From positions 6,227 to 70,226 of the forward strand of contig JAUYMS010000021.1 in NCBI GenBank assembly GCA_030698625.1: a DNA stretch of 64,000 nucleotides, given 5' to 3'. Within the stretch, counting starts at the first letter, position 1, and every line of letters begins with the position of its first letter. Below, one piece after another: positions 4,317 through 34,709 of this stretch. The notes under the pieces are model-generated. The model ran no database searches. It was not told the DNA's origin and saw only the letters and a list, made by a program, of their open reading frames with translations. A program made the position numbers and the translations under genes. The stretch is from Candidatus Omnitrophota bacterium (GTDB taxonomy: Bacteria; Omnitrophota; Omnitrophia; Omnitrophales; Aquincolibacteriaceae).

Positions 4317-5444
4317 TTGCAGATGGCCTCTCAGGATACTAACTTTCAAGCCGCACAAGAGATAGGGAAGATCTACCAGTCTATTCTGGAGAAAAAGCCG
4401 CTCTGTGATTTTTTCGTGGAAAGCGTCTCAAAGTATGTCCAGGCCTCGCGCGGCTATTTCTTTCTGCTGGGGCGTGAGGATACTTTCTGGCTGGAAGCTT
4501 CTACCGATTCTCGTAAAACCGCCCCTTCCGAGATCGAAGAACGCGCCAAGAAAGGTCTCGCTCAAGGAAAACCCCTCATGGAGTTCCTCCATCTGATGGT
4601 TCCGCTCGTTGTTCGGAATAATCCGGTGGGGATCGTCTGTCTCGTGCGCGAAGAATCGAAGGGACCGTTTGAACAGGGTGATCTGGACCTCGCTGCTGCT
4701 TTGGCGGCTCAGATGGCGGGGGCGTTTAAGAACATTCTCTTACTCGAAGAAAACCTTAAAATGGAGCGGCTTGCCGCAATCGGAAACACCGTCGGCATGG
4801 TCATGCATGAAATAAAGAACATTATGCAGCTCGCTCAGCTTTCCTACGAATACACCCAGAAGGGTGTAGAACTCAAGAAGGAGAACTTCATCGAAAAGGG
4901 ATTGGCGATGATGTCCAAGGCGCTCAAAGAAATGAACGGATTTATCTGGGAGATGCTCAGCTTGTCAAAGGAATGCGCGATCGAACCCGTTTCGGTCGAC
5001 ATGCCGAAGTTACTCAAAGAACTTACCGATGATCTTAGAGACAAGGCGCAGAGTTTCAGAGTGACTCTCAAATTGGATTTGGAAGAGAATTTCCCGGCCG
5101 TGCAGGCTGACGGACGGGGCCTTTACCGTGCGATACTCAATCTGGTGAAGAACTCCATGGAGGCATGCCACAAGGAAGAGTCCACGGTGACGCTGTCCCT
5201 TCGCTCTTGTGACGAAGTATCTTATCAGATAGGCGTGGAAGATAACGGTGACGGAATGACTCAGGAAGTGAAAGCACGAATTTTTGAGGCTTTTTTCTCA
5301 ACCAAAGGCGCTCGCGGTACCGGGCTCGGACTTATGATTATAGACCGCACAATACGCGCCCATCACGGGACAATTGAGGTGAAGAGTGAATTGGGAGAAG
5401 GCACCCGGATCACTTTGACTCTCCCGACAACGCCCCCGGTTTAA
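4317..5444 (+). CDS. sensor histidine kinase (GAF-like N-terminus, HisKA, HATPase_c)
   Basis: H-box MHEIKNIMQ. ATPase G-boxes GDGMTQEVKARIFEAFFSTKGARGTGLGLMIIDRTIRAHHGTIEV. The track start is a TTG at 4317, and an ATG at 4323 is the more likely start. Confidence 0.75.
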   Translation: MQMASQDTNFQAAQEIGKIYQSILEKKPLCDFFVESVSKYVQASRGYFFLLGREDTFWLEASTDSRKTAPSEIEERAKKGLAQGKPLMEFLHLMVPLVVRNNPVGIVCLVREESKGPFEQGDLDLAAALAAQMAGAFKNILLLEENLKMERLAAIGNTVGMVMHEIKNIMQLAQLSYEYTQKGVELKKENFIEKGLAMMSKALKEMNGFIWEMLSLSKECAIEPVSVDMPKLLKELTDDLRDKAQSFRVTLKLDLEENFPAVQADGRGLYRAILNLVKNSMEACHKEESTVTLSLRSCDEVSYQIGVEDNGDGMTQEVKARIFEAFFSTKGARGTGLGLMIIDRTIRAHHGTIEVKSELGEGTRITLTLPTTPPV

Positions 5445-9265: not shown

Positions 9266-9573
9266 TTTTTCATCTTGGCACTGAAATTCCTGAAAGGTCT
9301 GAAGCGACGCTTGATCATGAAAGGATCGAGCTTACTAAGACTGAAGGCGATATCATCAAGACTCAGATCCGAAAGAATAGCGTCCTTGTGGACGAATATG
9401 TGGGCCGGTTGGATCTTCTCCTCAATAAGGAACGATACCCGCAGCACGCCGTATTCATCAAGAAGATACGGCGCCGTCTCGAGCTTTTAATGGACGAAAA
9501 TAATACCTTCCGCAAAGTCCTCTGGGCCCACTTACAACGTGAAGAACTCTCAAGGATAAGCCTTCATCCATGA
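9262..9573 (+). CDS. hypothetical small protein
   Basis: ATGA overlaps with both the upstream ORF and glgC (translationally coupled chain). Confidence 0.3.
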   Translation: MIFHLGTEIPERSEATLDHERIELTKTEGDIIKTQIRKNSVLVDEYVGRLDLLLNKERYPQHAVFIKKIRRRLELLMDENNTFRKVLWAHLQREELSRISLHP

Positions 9574-10832
9574 GCGAGCAGATTACGACCTTAATTTTGG
9601 GAGGGGGACAGGGGAAGCGCCTGTTTCCATTGACGAGTTATCGCTCCAAACCGGCGGTTCCGATCGGAGCAAAGTACCGGCTTGTCGATATCCCCATCTC
9701 CAATTCGATTAATTCCGGTCTCCGGCAAATTTTTGTCCTGACTCAATTTAATTCCGTATCGTTGCACCGGCACATTCACCGAGCCTATGCTTATGGGCCG
9801 TTCAACCAAACCTCGATCGAGCTTCTGGCGGCCGAGCAGACGCCGGTGACAACGGATTGGTTCCAGGGAACTGCGGATGCGGTTCGCAAGCACTTGGATC
9901 ACTACCATCTCAAGTCTGCTGATACCGTGGTCATTCTGTCAGGCGACCATCTGTATCGCATGGATTACAGGAAGATTCTCGACTTCCATTATAAAAAAAA
10001 TGCGGACGTCACGATTTCGACAGTGCCTGTTACGAAGAGGGACGTGAGTGGCTTCGGTATCCTGCAGCTGCGGTCGAATGGTCGCGTGTCAGCCTTCTTG
10101 GAGAAACCGGCAAAGAATGTCGAGATCGGCGATTATGTAATCCCAGGCAACATTCGCAAGGCATACCATGTGCGAGGCGCCAAGGAGCTCTACCTTGCGT
10201 CTATGGGTGTTTATGTGTTTAAAGCGGGTGTCTTGGCGTCTCTCTTGGCAGGCAAGGAGACGGATTTTGGTCGGGAAATCATCCCCAAGTCGATTAAACA
10301 ATGTCAAGCATATGGCTACGTCTTCAACGGTTACTGGCGCGATATCGGAACGATTCGCAGTTTTTATGAAACGAGCATTGAGCTGACGTGTACGGATCCC
10401 CCGTTTAACTTTATGGCTCCTGAGGGGAGAATTTTTACGCGTGCGCGGTTTCTTCCGCCTTCGACAATGACAGAGAGCAATTTTTCGAGTGTCCTTATGG
10501 GAGAAGGATGTGTCATTAAAGGTGCGGATATTTCGCAGTCGCTCGTAGGAGTGCGCTCCGTAATCGATGAAGGAACAAGTATCCGCAAGAGCGTTTTGAT
10601 GGGAAATGACTTTTATGAAACGGGCAAGTCACGCGGGAAGCCGCAGCTCGGCATCGGCAAGAAATGCGTGATTGAAAATTGTATCCTGGATAAGAACGTC
10701 CGTATCGGTGACCGCGTTCGGATCACGAATCAGAAGCGTGTGCAGGAAAAAGACGGGAACAATTATTATATTCGGGACGGAATTGTGATTGTCCCTAAGG
10801 GTGCCGTCATTGCGAGCGGCACGCGAATCTAA
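9570..10832 (+). CDS. glgC: glucose-1-phosphate adenylyltransferase
   Basis: N-terminal GGGQGKRLFPLTSYRSKPAVPIGAKYRLVDIPISNSINSG and a left-handed beta-helix C-terminus. Confidence 0.9.
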   Translation: MSEQITTLILGGGQGKRLFPLTSYRSKPAVPIGAKYRLVDIPISNSINSGLRQIFVLTQFNSVSLHRHIHRAYAYGPFNQTSIELLAAEQTPVTTDWFQGTADAVRKHLDHYHLKSADTVVILSGDHLYRMDYRKILDFHYKKNADVTISTVPVTKRDVSGFGILQLRSNGRVSAFLEKPAKNVEIGDYVIPGNIRKAYHVRGAKELYLASMGVYVFKAGVLASLLAGKETDFGREIIPKSIKQCQAYGYVFNGYWRDIGTIRSFYETSIELTCTDPPFNFMAPEGRIFTRARFLPPSTMTESNFSSVLMGEGCVIKGADISQSLVGVRSVIDEGTSIRKSVLMGNDFYETGKSRGKPQLGIGKKCVIENCILDKNVRIGDRVRITNQKRVQEKDGNNYYIRDGIVIVPKGAVIASGTRI

Positions 10833-10903
10833 ACGGCCAGGAAATACCCCTCCAAATCCCGCAAGGTGAAAGCGAGTCCGCCAGAAACGCCAAGGAAGAA
10901 CGC

Positions 10904-11114
10904 CCGGAAAACACTCCTCCGCATGTTTCTGACAGCCTCGTTTTGACCTCGCAGGCCTGGGCCGCTTGGGCAAAAGAAGAAGGAAGGACGGCCGGGAAAT
11001 ACTCCGGAAAAACAATCAGCGCTTCTTGCGGAGACGAGGAGATCCACTTTTGGGACGGAAGTCCCAAAAGTTAACTCCGAGCGCAGCAGCGCGTTTTGGA
11101 GGAGTGTTTTCCGG
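10904..11114. repeat. MITE-like element copy A (17-bp perfect terminal inverted repeats, no ORF)
   Basis: Terminal inverted repeats CCGGAAAACACTCCTCC (10904-10920) and GGAGGAGTGTTTTCCGG (11098-11114). The ~200-bp core is about 85-90% identical by eye to 33133-33334. Shared strings include ctcctccgcatgtttctgacagcc, ggaaggacggcc, atactccggaaaaacaat, gcggagacgagg and ttaactccgagcgcagcagcgcgttttggaggagtgttt. Confidence 0.6.
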
Positions 11115-11130
11115 CTGTCTTTAGAGATAC

Positions 11131-12228
11131 TTAACGGTTACCGCGGTCGAGATTGAGCAGAGCCCCCACCGAAAAGACGATATTTCCCAGCCAGGCACCC
11201 GCAAAAGGTATCAGCTTGCCTGCCTTTCCCAGCGCCAGTCCGACGGCGCCCATCACGTGATAGGAAAAGACCAATCCGACGCAGAGTAAGACCGTGCCCG
11301 CAATCGCTTTTCGATTTCGTGTTGGTGCAAGGAGAGGCACGGCGATTAGCATCATTACTAGACCCTGCCATGGGGACGCAAGTTTGTACTGCAGGTCCAC
11401 CTTCTCCGAGTAGACGAGAACGCCGTTTTCTTTCAATTTCGCGATGGAATGTTTGAGTTCGCGGTATGACAGGAATGCGCTGTCACTCGAGGCGTTGAGT
11501 AACTCGCGGGGTGTCATGGTTATTTGCGGATACACCTTCTTAGTCATGTAGCGCGGTTCGCCAAGAATTCGGCCCTGCGAATCCACTTTGTATTCCGTGA
11601 CCCCCTCAAATTCCCATGCAGTCCCCGACCATTTTCCGCGCTCGGCAATTGTTTTCTGAAAAGTGGTCTGGTCCGGTTTATCCATCCACAGGATGATGGC
11701 ATCCTCGACTACTTTTCGTGTCGCATAGAAAGTCCGAAAATAGAAAAGCTGATTTCCGCCGGAGTAATAGGTCACGTTCTGGAAACTTTTCTCCTCTTTC
11801 CGCTCCTTCTTCTGTTCAATGTAAACTTCGCGCAGATCGGTCGCCATTCGATAGCTCACGGGCACGAGCCGGTCACCGATCAAGAATGTAAAGATTCCGA
11901 TCAAAAATCCCACGAAAACGATCGGTTTAATGATAGTGGTGATCCGCAGGCCGGCAACCTTCATGGCGATGATTTCATTGTGGAGCCCGAAATTAACCAG
12001 GAGGAAGAGTGTTCCGAGCCATGTGGCCCAGGGGATCGTTTCGCAATAGGCGTAAGGGATCAGCGAGAAGTAATACTTCAATATGATTCCGATGGAGATT
12101 CTGTTTCTTAAAATTTCGTCGAGATTATCGAAGAGGTCGGCAATCAGGATCATGAAGACGAGCGTTGCCGAGCTACACACGATGGGCATCAAAAGCTCCC
12201 GTACGAGATAACGATCGATTACTTTCAT
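11131..12228 (-). CDS. LptF/LptG family LPS export permease (YjgP/YjgQ)
   Basis: N-terminus MKVIDRYLVRELLMPIVCSSATLVFMILIADLFDNLDEIL, six-TM architecture with a periplasmic insert. Confidence 0.8.
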   Translation of the reverse strand: MKVIDRYLVRELLMPIVCSSATLVFMILIADLFDNLDEILRNRISIGIILKYYFSLIPYAYCETIPWATWLGTLFLLVNFGLHNEIIAMKVAGLRITTIIKPIVFVGFLIGIFTFLIGDRLVPVSYRMATDLREVYIEQKKERKEEKSFQNVTYYSGGNQLFYFRTFYATRKVVEDAIILWMDKPDQTTFQKTIAERGKWSGTAWEFEGVTEYKVDSQGRILGEPRYMTKKVYPQITMTPRELLNASSDSAFLSYRELKHSIAKLKENGVLVYSEKVDLQYKLASPWQGLVMMLIAVPLLAPTRNRKAIAGTVLLCVGLVFSYHVMGAVGLALGKAGKLIPFAGAWLGNIVFSVGALLNLDRGNR

Positions 12229-20892: not shown

Positions 20893-21369
20893 TTGCCGAG
20901 CGCCGCCTTCGACATCCAAGTCCGGAACGAAACCCGATCACGAAGCATGTCCTGCGAGAAAATTCGCCGTATCGCTTCGCAGACATTGCGCGCCCTTGGC
21001 CTGCGTTCGGGGGTCTTGAGTGTCCTGCTTGTCGGTGACCGCAAGATGCAGAGCCTTAACCGCCGCTATCTGCAGCATGACCGTCCGACGGACGTCATTG
21101 CTTTCGGCGGACTGCTTGATTCCGGCCGCCTTGAAGCGACGCAGGGTAGGCCTTATCTCGGTGACATCGTAATCTCTGTGGATACCGCGCGGCGGCAGGC
21201 GCGATCATACGGAAACTCATTTTCCTATGAGCTAATGTTCTACCTCTGTCACGGCATTCTCCACCTGCGCGGGTATCGGGATAAGACCGTTAAAGGGGCC
21301 TCGGCGATGGAGGGTAAACAAAAGACACTGCTGAAGAAAATAGGGATAAAGAACACGCCTTCGAGATGA
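20893..21369 (+). CDS. ybeY: rRNA maturation endoribonuclease YbeY
   Basis: CHGILHLRGYRD histidine-triad region. Size and synteny fit. Confidence 0.9.
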   Translation: MPSAAFDIQVRNETRSRSMSCEKIRRIASQTLRALGLRSGVLSVLLVGDRKMQSLNRRYLQHDRPTDVIAFGGLLDSGRLEATQGRPYLGDIVISVDTARRQARSYGNSFSYELMFYLCHGILHLRGYRDKTVKGASAMEGKQKTLLKKIGIKNTPSR

Positions 21370-32588: not shown

Positions 32589-32607
32589 TTCCTAACCCTT
32601 CCTCATT

Positions 32608-32925
32608 TTGTCAGCCATTCTAGTTCTGACAACCGTTCCCAATCGCAAAGAGGCACGTAAAATTGCCGATCGGGTGCTGTCCGCCCGCGTTGCCGCCTGC
32701 GTCAATATCCTTTCTGGGATCGAGTCGCATTACTGGTGGCAGGGCAAGAAGGAAAAGGCGGGAGAGGTGGCGCTGCTTATCAAGACACGCAAGTCCCTTT
32801 ACAAGCAACTGGAAAAAGTGATTTTAAAAGTGCACTCCTATGGTACTCCAGAGATCATTGCATTCCCGATTTCAAATGGGAATCCTGCCTATCTAAAATG
32901 GCTCAGAAGTGAGACTAAGTCTTAG
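32608..32925 (+). CDS. cutA: divalent-cation tolerance protein CutA
   Basis: ILVLTTVPNRKEARKIADRVLSARVAACVNIL...SHYWWQGK...EVALLIKT...YGTPEIIAFPI. Confidence 0.85.
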   Translation: MSAILVLTTVPNRKEARKIADRVLSARVAACVNILSGIESHYWWQGKKEKAGEVALLIKTRKSLYKQLEKVILKVHSYGTPEIIAFPISNGNPAYLKWLRSETKS

Positions 32926-32945
32926 ATTCTAAGTCTATTCTGCAA

Positions 32946-33410
32946 GGACGGCCAGGAAACACTCCTCCGCAGGTTCCGACAGCGTTGTTCTCACCTCTCG
33001 GGTTGCGCCCACCGGGAGACGCTTCGCGAGGCAAAAACAAGTCTGTCCGAAACGCTACGGATTTCTTGGCCTATCCTGCCCATCAAAGTCCTGCCGAAAA
33101 CCGGTGACTTTGATACACGCCGATACGGCCAGCGAGCTCCTCCGCATGTTTCTGACAGCCTTGTTTTCACCTCGCAGGCCTGGGATGTTTGCGGCGAAAG
33201 GAAGGACGGCCAGGGGATACTCCGGAAAAACAATTAGCGCTGTTTGCGGAGACGAGGTGATAAATTTTTGGGGCGACAGTCCCAAAAATTAACTCCGAGC
33301 GCAGCAGCGCGTTTTGGAGGAGTGTTTCCTGGCCGTCCCGCGCTAGCGTTTCGGACGGACTCTTTTTTACCGCGTAGCGCGCGTCAGAGGAGTGTTTTCG
33401 GTTCGTCCTT
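32946..33410. repeat. MITE-like element copy B (composite or nested; 23-bp perfect terminal inverted repeats)
   Basis: Terminal inverted repeats GGACGGCCAGGAAACACTCCTCC (32946-32968) and GGAGGAGTGTTTCCTGGCCGTCC (33316-33338). The inner 33133-33334 is homologous to the copy A core. Extra 12-bp inverted repeat gtccgaaacgct (33045-33056) / agcgtttcggac (33345-33356). A further repeat-end-like gaggagtgttttcgg sits near 33388. Confidence 0.6.
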
Positions 33411-33447
33411 CGGTGAGTGAAGGAGAAATACCTCTATGAGGGCGATG

Positions 33448-34005
33448 CTAGATCTTCGAGGGTGAAACCGTAACGAGGGTTCGTGCGGGTTTATCTTGCG
33501 GATTGCTGAGCTTGTGCGGAAAAGACGCATCAAAGTAAAGCGTTTCACCCGTCTTCAATGTGAATTCCTGCTGATCAACCCGGACTTTAACTTCCCCTTC
33601 CAACTGATAGAGAAATTTTTCCACACCGCGTTCCTGACTTTCCAATGAGGTCTCGGCATTCCTGGAAAGAGTGATTAAAAGCGGAGTGATCTTTTTCTTT
33701 GAGCTTTCTGCCGTGAGCAGCTCAATCTGAACCCCTTTTTCCTGATGATGCGCCCTTCGCTCTGCGTCCTTTTGGAGGTGGGCTGTTTGTTCATAACGGG
33801 AGTCAATGCCTGTGTAGAGGTCCGCCAAGCCTATTCCGAGGACTTCCGAGATGAGTTCATGACTTTCGATGGTGCCCGTCATCACGCCAGTCTCAATCCG
33901 GGATAGCGTAGCCTGCGCAATCTTGGTCCTTTTGGAGAGCTCCACGAGGGTAATTCCCTTGTCTTTGCGCAGGGTTCGAAGGCGTTTTCCGAGGTTTTTC
34001 AGCAT
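33448..34005 (-). CDS. XRE-family HTH transcriptional regulator with C-terminal cupin domain
   Basis: HTH_3: LRKDKGITLVELSKRTKIAQATLSRIETG. Cupin: GEVKVRVDQQEFTLKTGETLYFDASFPHKLSNP. Confidence 0.8.
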   Translation of the reverse strand: MLKNLGKRLRTLRKDKGITLVELSKRTKIAQATLSRIETGVMTGTIESHELISEVLGIGLADLYTGIDSRYEQTAHLQKDAERRAHHQEKGVQIELLTAESSKKKITPLLITLSRNAETSLESQERGVEKFLYQLEGEVKVRVDQQEFTLKTGETLYFDASFPHKLSNPQDKPARTLVTVSPSKI

Positions 34006-34680: not shown

Positions 34681-34709
34681 TTGAAAGTTACCTGAAAGAC
34701 CAGGATAAC
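34681..34709 (+). promoter_or_regulatory. candidate promoter of the giant gene: TTGAAA-N17-GATAAC
   Basis: -35 TTGAAA at 34681-34686. 17-nt spacer. Weak -10 GATAAC at 34704-34709. Located in a ~220-bp AT-richer leader. Confidence 0.3.

Follow-up and report, generated by a model that had tools for sequence, protein, structure and literature searches.

REPINs and BIMEs, which often lie at the 3' ends of genes, are extragenic, non-coding repeats without target-site duplications (TSDs); they form long imperfect hairpins with two inverted conserved arms and a less conserved spacer, and are mobilized by RAYT/TnpA-REP. BOX elements of Streptococcus pneumoniae are intergenic modules without an ORF, built from short blocks (boxA-boxB-boxC) with paired ends that form stable stem-loops. 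DDE-derived MITEs such as Correia/NEMIS of Neisseria and RUP of S. pneumoniae comprise 100–400 bp with perfect terminal inverted repeats (TIRs) and no ORF, are intergenic, and can be co-transcribed and fold into hairpins; they have defined TSDs, which for Correia and RUP are duplications of TA, and a recognizable parent IS. REPINs have been described as inverted doublets that form hairpins in single-stranded DNA or mRNA, with common compensatory changes and with higher-order clusters (PMC3116915).

The window, i.e. the whole 64-kb stretch of DNA that was analyzed, gave a direct view of two copies of a repeat, at loci A and B. The host belongs to the Omnitrophota, uncultured and mostly ultra-small bacteria with compact genomes; a literature search found nothing on intergenic repeats in this group. 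Most likely, the element is a small mobile parasite, new but of an ordinary kind. We consider it probable that it represents a non-coding, lineage-restricted, and non-autonomous repeat without TSDs that is MITE-like in a broad sense and closest in behavior to REPIN/BIME. It was filed neither as a MITE nor as a REP because no TSD was found and its constituent motifs, M1 and M2, are not palindromic units.

With REPINs and BIMEs, the element shares the extragenic position, the non-coding character without TSD, the long imperfect hairpin with two inverted arms around a less conserved spacer, the preservation of this hairpin by compensatory changes (here two compensatory and six wobble-preserving ones), and higher-order mosaic clusters with alternating motif orientation (PMC3116915). 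It differs in that REP units are themselves short imperfect palindromes (20–40 nt), whereas M1 and M2 are not self-complementary and are thus no REP units. Moreover, M1 has no GTAG at its 5' end, the unit, with its 139-nt hairpin in a core of ~220 bp, exceeds theirs in size, and no RAYT was present among the window ORFs scanned. The size, perfect TIRs, lack of an ORF, intergenic position, and capacity to fold are common to Correia/NEMIS and RUP; unlike in these, neither TSDs nor a parent IS were found, and homology continues past the TIRs. The modular build from few short blocks, the stem-loops, and the intergenic position without an ORF recall BOX, but there is no sequence similarity, and the fixed A-B(n)-C order of BOX contrasts with the use of both orientations and nesting here. 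Like bidirectional intrinsic terminators, the element lies between two stop codons and forms very stable hairpins on both strands; in contrast to these 20–40 nt structures, it comprises 100–470 nt, has no U- or A-tract beside its stems, and is repeated at an unrelated locus.

In copy A (10904–11114), CCGGAAAACACTCCTCC at 10904–10920 is the perfect reverse complement of 11098–11114 (17/17), and in copy B, GGACGGCCAGGAAACACTCCTCC at 32946–32968 is that of 33316–33338 (23/23). The shared core of ~205 bp (10914–11119 versus 33137–33337) aligned with 86% identity over 207 columns (BLASTN, E = 1e-55) and contains two ungapped blocks with 46/48 (10914–10961 versus 33137–33184) and 123/140 identical positions. 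Conservation is higher at the ends than in the middle, with the 46/48 block on the left and a 39-nt identical run on the right; this run contains all 31-mers repeated within the window. Pfam analysis of the neighboring genes placed locus A in the convergent gap between GlgC (9570–10832, plus strand) and LptF/G (11131–12228, minus strand), and locus B in that between CutA (32608–32925, plus strand) and an HTH+cupin regulator (33448–34005, minus strand). The genes flanking the two loci are unrelated, and both copies have the same orientation. An earlier note on this DNA had reported perfect TIRs of 17 bp in A and 23 bp in B, a shared core of ~200 bp at high identity, the position of both copies in convergent gaps (glgC/lptFG and cutA/XRE regulator), and a longer copy B with additional nested inverted repeats. 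All of this was borne out, the last point by the motif map described below, and exact alignment, which according to that note could have refuted it, revealed an inverted-repeat-bounded structure at both loci.

The repeated DNA exceeds the TIR-bounded interval, as 10833–10920 in A is 68% identical to the reverse complement of 33316–33406 in B. Including the homology outside the TIRs, the loci extend over 10833–11124 (292 bp) and 32944–33411 (468 bp). Locus A thereby fills the glgC/lptFG gap from the first base after the glgC stop to 6 nt short of the lptFG stop. Four convergent junctions are present in the window; two of them have no intergenic space, and the other two both carry the element, which is thus present in every convergent gap of the window that has room. 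The two without space, at 1668–1672 and 5441–5444, comprise a gap of 3 nt in one case and an overlap of 4 nt in the other.

An ungapped diagonal comparison of both loci on both strands identified two recurring motifs, each found in both orientations: M1 (25 nt, AAGGACGGCCAGGAAACACTCCTCC) and M2 (~30 nt), whose two orientations read GCGAGGTNAAAACGAGNCTGTCAGAAAC and GTTTCTGACAGCC...ACCTCGC. As M1 and M2 occur in direct and inverted orientation, nested long hairpins result at each locus. The features are as follows.

10833–11124, no strand: whole mosaic repeat of locus A, in the glgC/lptFG convergent gap.
10833–10853, plus: degenerate direct copy of M1, ACGGCCAGGAAATACCCCTCC, 19/21 identical to 32948–32968.
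10858–10890, plus: direct M2, left arm of hairpin 1, 24/31 complementary to 10925–10955 and 27/37 identical to 33025–33061.
10896–10920, plus: M1, left TIR of A (perfect part 10904–10920), 17/17 complementary to 11098–11114.
10921–10955, minus: inverted M2, right arm of hairpin 1, from the diagonal comparison.
10980–11005, plus: internal M1-like motif, 5' arm at the base of unit 2, 22/26 identical to 10892–10917, pairing with 11101–11122.
11046–11071, no strand: apical perfect hairpin of unit 2 with an 11-bp stem and a GGAA loop, one compensatory C-G to T-A change versus copy B.
11098–11124, minus: inverted M1, right TIR of A (perfect part 11098–11114), from its complementarity to the left TIR.
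32944–33411, no strand: whole mosaic repeat of locus B, in the cutA/HTH-cupin convergent gap.
32944–32968, plus: M1, outer-left end of B (perfect 23 bp at 32946–32968), 23/23 complementary to 33316–33338.
32969–33002, minus: inverted M2, diverged version of the left core portion (32944–33002 is 78% identical to 10896–10955).
33026–33057, plus: direct M2, 24/28 complementary to 33148–33175 and 26/31 to 33344–33374.
33058–33124, no strand: B-specific 67-nt spacer, absent from A, with its own hairpin (33082–33114, 9-bp stem).
33125–33143, plus: degenerate M1, ACGGCCAGCGAGCTCCTCC, left end of the A-like core in B, from comparison with A.
33144–33178, minus: inverted M2 inside the A-like core of B, within the 46/48 block 10914–10961 versus 33137–33184.
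33198–33223, plus: internal M1-like motif, 5' arm at the base of unit 2 in B, from the motif map.
33264–33289, no strand: apical hairpin of unit 2 in B, from folding.
33316–33338, minus: inverted M1, right end of the inner element; 33338 is the repeat boundary inferred from the k=31 assembly.
33344–33377, minus: inverted M2 outside the inner right end, complementary to the copy at 33026–33057.
33386–33411, minus: inverted M1, outermost right end of B, 21/25 complementary to 10895–10919 and 74% identical to the right end of A.

Locus A thus reads degenerate M1, direct M2, M1, inverted M2, spacer, internal M1, a stem with the apical hairpin, and inverted M1. Locus B reads M1, inverted M2, direct M2, the 67-nt spacer, degenerate M1, and inverted M2 in its left part, followed by internal M1, the apical hairpin, inverted M1, inverted M2, and inverted M1 in its right part. 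In its anatomy, the element is a mosaic in which two short motifs form nested hairpins, and not a single TIR-bounded MITE; M1 is found not just at the ends but also internally and in several direct copies. The conserved working unit has ~215–230 bp (10896–11124 in A, 33125–33338 in B) and consists, from left to right, of M1, inverted M2, spacer, and the 139-nt imperfect palindrome that the internal M1 and the right inverted M1 close. The perfect 23-bp repeat of B joins its outer-left end with the inner-right end, and the A-like core in B has a degenerate left end of its own (33125–33143). The TIRs of A and B differ from each other at two positions, and within each locus both arms share one variant: M1 contains CCGG in A and CCAGG in B, identical across all arms of the given locus. 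The 12-mer GGAGGAGTGTTT occurs five times with one mismatch or less (0.26 expected by chance) and is confined to loci A and B. A weak M1-like match at 5075–5101 lies inside a histidine-kinase gene and is attributed to chance.

Each terminal repeat, when read outward, gives GGAGGAGTG, a strong Shine–Dalgarno-like purine run, located at 10909–10920 (minus), 11098–11109 (plus), 32957–32968 (minus), and 33316–33327 (plus). Its complement CACTCCTCC resembles the anti-Shine–Dalgarno sequence.

Folding resolved two hairpin modules at each locus. Hairpin 1 consists of direct M2, a loop, and inverted M2 (10856–10957 in A, 33024–33180 in B), and unit 2 is the 139-nt imperfect palindrome in which internal M1 and inverted M1 enclose the apex (modules 10984–11124 and 33202–33340). 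RNA folding of the element, for which the earlier note had asked, was far better than that of shuffled sequences (z −4.5 to −8.5), with z values for the two strands of −4.5 and −5.3 at locus A and of −8.5 and −6.6 at locus B, where a coherent nested structure was obtained. Folded as single-stranded DNA, M1 and M2 were no better than shuffles (z −0.9 to +0.8).

The 139-nt hairpin is kept intact through the 18 substitutions that separate its two copies, ten of them in paired columns: 50/50 pairs are kept and none is broken. Two pairs carry changes in both partners, one from G-C to A-U and one, in the apical stem, from C-G to U-A; in six others, a single partner changed, each time to or from G.U. 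When 18 substitutions were placed at random, a mean of 7.4 pairs was broken, and no broken pair was obtained in only 4 of 100,000 trials; since the two sequences compared are also those from which the structure was derived, the test is partly circular and the resulting P value of 4e-5 optimistic. The two modules differ in their preferred strand. In both copies, the plus strand is favored in unit 2 by ~16 kcal/mol, whereas hairpin 1 is more stable by 11–17 kcal/mol on the minus strand at both loci (at 10856–10957, −51.5 kcal/mol on the minus versus −34.9 kcal/mol on the plus strand). On the minus strand, the helices of unit 2 contain six A.C mismatches per copy. Among the transition mismatches, counted on the plus strand, the ratio of the G.T to the A.C type was 4:1 and 5:1 in unit 2 and 1:5 and 0:2 in hairpin 1. 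With such small counts, the opposite strand preference of the modules is suggestive at most. The G.U-kept pairs, the strand bias, and the locus-uniform M1 variants are compatible with selection that acts on a single strand of RNA or DNA; REPINs have been characterized in like terms (PMC3116915).

The window GlgC matches MDP3919761.1, encoded on an 85,091-bp contig of a Candidatus Omnitrophota MAG, with 100% identity; the next closest GlgC reaches no more than 70%. No close relative has been sampled. About 19 loci of Omnitrophota MAGs share the convergent glgC/lptFG pair, and the element was absent from the orthologous gap of all of these related MAGs. This gap comprises 9–11 bp in three MAGs (L006, L007, L018) and 113–1114 bp in the others, and contains long palindromes unrelated to the element in L008, L011, L013, and L017. 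No dispersed repeats of at least 40 nt were detected in eight syntenic 21-kb loci of relatives; two such loci within 35 kb of ordinary genes are therefore unusual for the group. The orthologous gap is highly plastic across L005–L024: a conserved small ORF is found in L012, L013, L015, L017, and L019, a different conserved segment in L005 and L010, and a cyclophilin-type gene in L009, L014, L016, L020, and L022, and the unrelated palindrome in L008 (4026–4132) is 108 nt long.

The exact 21-mer GCGCGTTTTGGAGGAGTGTTT gave no further copy in GTDB species-representative genomes or JGI metagenomes. The gapped TIR pattern AAACACTCCTCC-N(162-192)-GGAGGAGTGTTT had no match in JGI metagenomes, an 18-mer of the element none in IMG/VR, and a distant-mode BLASTN search with the element none among plasmids or phages. 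A low-stringency BLASTN search with both loci covered 1.26 Mb of retrieved loci, among them 23 from Omnitrophota, and hit only contigs of the same organism from the Logan assembly (see below), and a covariance model of unit 2 run against the window and the 23 Omnitrophota loci retrieved the two known copies only. The earlier note had suggested the repeat-end motif as a lead to further copies and a parent IS; neither additional copies nor an IS with M1-like ends were found in the public collections searched. Rfam 15 gave no match in the whole window at the gathering score, and a permissive scan returned only a chance miRNA match (E = 0.63).

Several known classes were considered and rejected. 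A template/variable repeat pair of a DGR is at odds with differences that are not adenine-specific, and there was no reverse transcriptase among the window ORFs scanned. Integron attC sites were dismissed as R''/R' core sites are missing and the neighbors are housekeeping genes, Tn7-like ends as the TGT/ACA termini are absent, and a retron, a group II intron fragment, or a known sRNA as none has an Rfam match.

For a mobile repeat of this kind, an enzyme encoded elsewhere in the genome would recognize the M1 ends and copy or move the unit. In agreement with the statement of the earlier note that the copies contain no transposase ORF, neither a transposase nor a RAYT was present among the window ORFs scanned, all of which represent housekeeping or signaling genes. 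At the repeat-end edges, where TSDs had been suggested to be looked for, nine candidate pairs of boundaries gave flanking direct repeats of 2–3 nt at the longest, a slack of 3 nt to either side included. Mobilization as a single-stranded hairpin by an HUH/Y1-type enzyme, a route that has been proposed for REPINs, would be favored over DDE cut-and-paste, since TSDs are lacking, conservation concerns the hairpin and not the sequence, and the mismatches, of the G.T type, are strand-asymmetric. Locus B appears to have arisen from one unit that inserted into, or fused with, an older copy. When transcribed from either flanking gene, the hairpins would probably block read-through or protect 3' ends, as a side effect or secondary use and not as the reason for the existence of the element. 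A host-level role as read-through barrier or 3'-end protector is possible; a terminator or sRNA role is conjecture. Several points speak against the mobile-repeat reading: the direct view covers two loci only, the evidence for further copies is indirect, no transposase or RAYT was present among the window ORFs scanned, no related element was found in the collections searched, M1 and M2 are not palindromic, the perfect Watson–Crick TIRs are more typical of DDE elements, the test of hairpin conservation is partly circular, and the nested layout of locus B, in a MAG assembled across a repeat, could be partly chimeric.

The description of the element as MITE-like therefore holds in part. Its non-coding nature, the TIRs, the presence at two unrelated loci, and the absence from the gap of the relatives agree with it, whereas the missing TSDs, the mosaic anatomy, and the lack of a parent IS in the public collections searched do not. 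That the element is a classical MITE, i.e. a deletion derivative of an IS with a DDE transposase, moved in trans via M1 TIRs and with TSDs that were never made or have been erased, appears rather unlikely. Perfect Watson–Crick pairing of 17- and 23-bp TIRs, ends that are more conserved than the interior, and a small, non-coding element (core 215–230 bp, loci 292 and 468 bp, under about 600 bp) are all expected for such a derivative, and the identical variant in both arms of each locus would be explained if one protein binds both ends. However, TSDs should have survived next to TIRs that are still perfect, yet none longer than 3 nt was found at the nine boundary pairs. The homology that runs past the TIRs, the internal and several direct copies of M1, and the failure to find an IS with M1-like ends in the collections searched also argue against it.

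An origin as a duplicated functional cis-acting RNA or DNA structure, and not as a parasite, is unlikely. The repeat would then serve as a bidirectional read-through barrier or 3'-end stabilizer under selection at the RNA level, with unit 2 acting on plus-strand transcripts and hairpin 1 on minus-strand transcripts. The opposite strand preferences in stability and in G.T-type mismatches, the position of both copies in convergent gaps in the same orientation, the absence of broken pairs across 18 substitutions, and the unrelated long palindromes in the same gap of four relatives are in line with it. The mismatch counts are, however, small, and the two copies are not independent. Each transcript would meet the weaker hairpin first, an odd design for a terminator, and there is no Rfam family and no U-tract terminator: U-tract terminator-like sites numbered 0 in 10500–11500 and 0 in 32600–33700, versus 1.6–1.7 expected in shuffles. 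Furthermore, the element is absent from the orthologous site of every relative, three of which manage with a gap of 9–11 bp, and such a function leaves unexplained how it arrived at two unrelated loci.

A further reading, in which the element is a mobile two-part RNA-structure cassette, i.e. a transposable bidirectional terminator or insulator retained by the host, is considered quite unlikely. If true, G.U pairs would tune unit 2 for folding on one of the strands and hairpin 1 would fold on the opposite one, and a protective or terminating 3' hairpin would be provided for both transcripts wherever the cassette lands between convergent genes. Such a cassette would fit a phylum in which the convergent gaps, as seen here, are without U-tract terminators.

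An independent assembly bears on the integrity of the two loci. The Logan assembly of SRR13727534 uses k=31 (PMC12424806). Four Logan contigs that carry the flanking genes matched the window with 100% identity and extended well into both elements from all four sides. All four ended inside the elements, at 11027, 11080, 33062, and 33309, and the recovered contigs leave 11028–11079 and 33063–33308 uncovered. The 31-mers shared by A and B within the window account for the break at 11080 only, and three of the four breaks are unexplained by them. The break at 33309 implies that another sequence in the sample shares the 30-mer 33309–33338 and then diverges; the inferred divergence point, 33338, coincides with the final base of the 23-bp repeat. 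The view that the element truly ends at 33338, and hence that locus B arose by nested insertion, gains support from this coincidence. The breaks hint at at least one further copy, with the caveat that strain variants can cause contig breaks, too. Logan contigs also end at ~20954–20979, ~3235, and ~56131, all away from the element; contig ends alone are therefore no proof of a repeat.

A partial assembly artefact, in which the repeat is real but the layout of locus B, and possibly the cutA/HTH-cupin adjacency, stems from contig ends joined via the repeat, is very unlikely. The two uncovered intervals and the unusual nested motif order in B would be accounted for, and the synteny support covers the junction at locus A and not the cutA/HTH-cupin adjacency. 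On the other hand, the Logan contigs enter both elements without a mismatch from all four sides, the glgC/lptFG junction across locus A is syntenic in about 19 MAGs, and locus B folds as one coherent nested structure (z −8.5).

A duplicated gene fragment or pseudogene, the fallback of the earlier note, is effectively refuted: although minus-strand ORFs of 86 aa (10807–11067) and 76 aa (33055–33285) overlap the two copies, they are alike over 29 aa only, as a 5-nt indel then abolishes the common frame, both lack a Pfam match, none of the six frames has a homologue, and the sequence is palindromic throughout. The 86-aa ORF had no homologue among 5.8 billion protein clusters, and neither had the six-frame translation of the concatenated loci at E values up to 1 in the same clusters, a search run to catch spurious ORFs called on other copies. 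The loss of the reading frame after 29 aa also led us to reject real small proteins, and the proposal that the short ORFs resemble each other merely through the repeated DNA was corroborated.

As a lineage-specific repeat family, the mobile repeat would provide a marker for strain typing and, since it already fragments a k=31 assembly, for the diagnosis of assembly breaks in these MAGs. It would further offer a handle on the enzyme that moves it and a small natural test of hairpin repeats kept as 3'-end structures; in other respects, the element is bacterial selfish DNA of an ordinary type.

Downstream of locus B, one plus-strand frame at 34709–64000 is open for 9,764 codons and runs past the window end, i.e. 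a giant gene for more than 9,700 aa, of which Logan calls a truncated product of 7,094 aa. It fills the right half of the window, which explains the few ordinary ORFs listed there.
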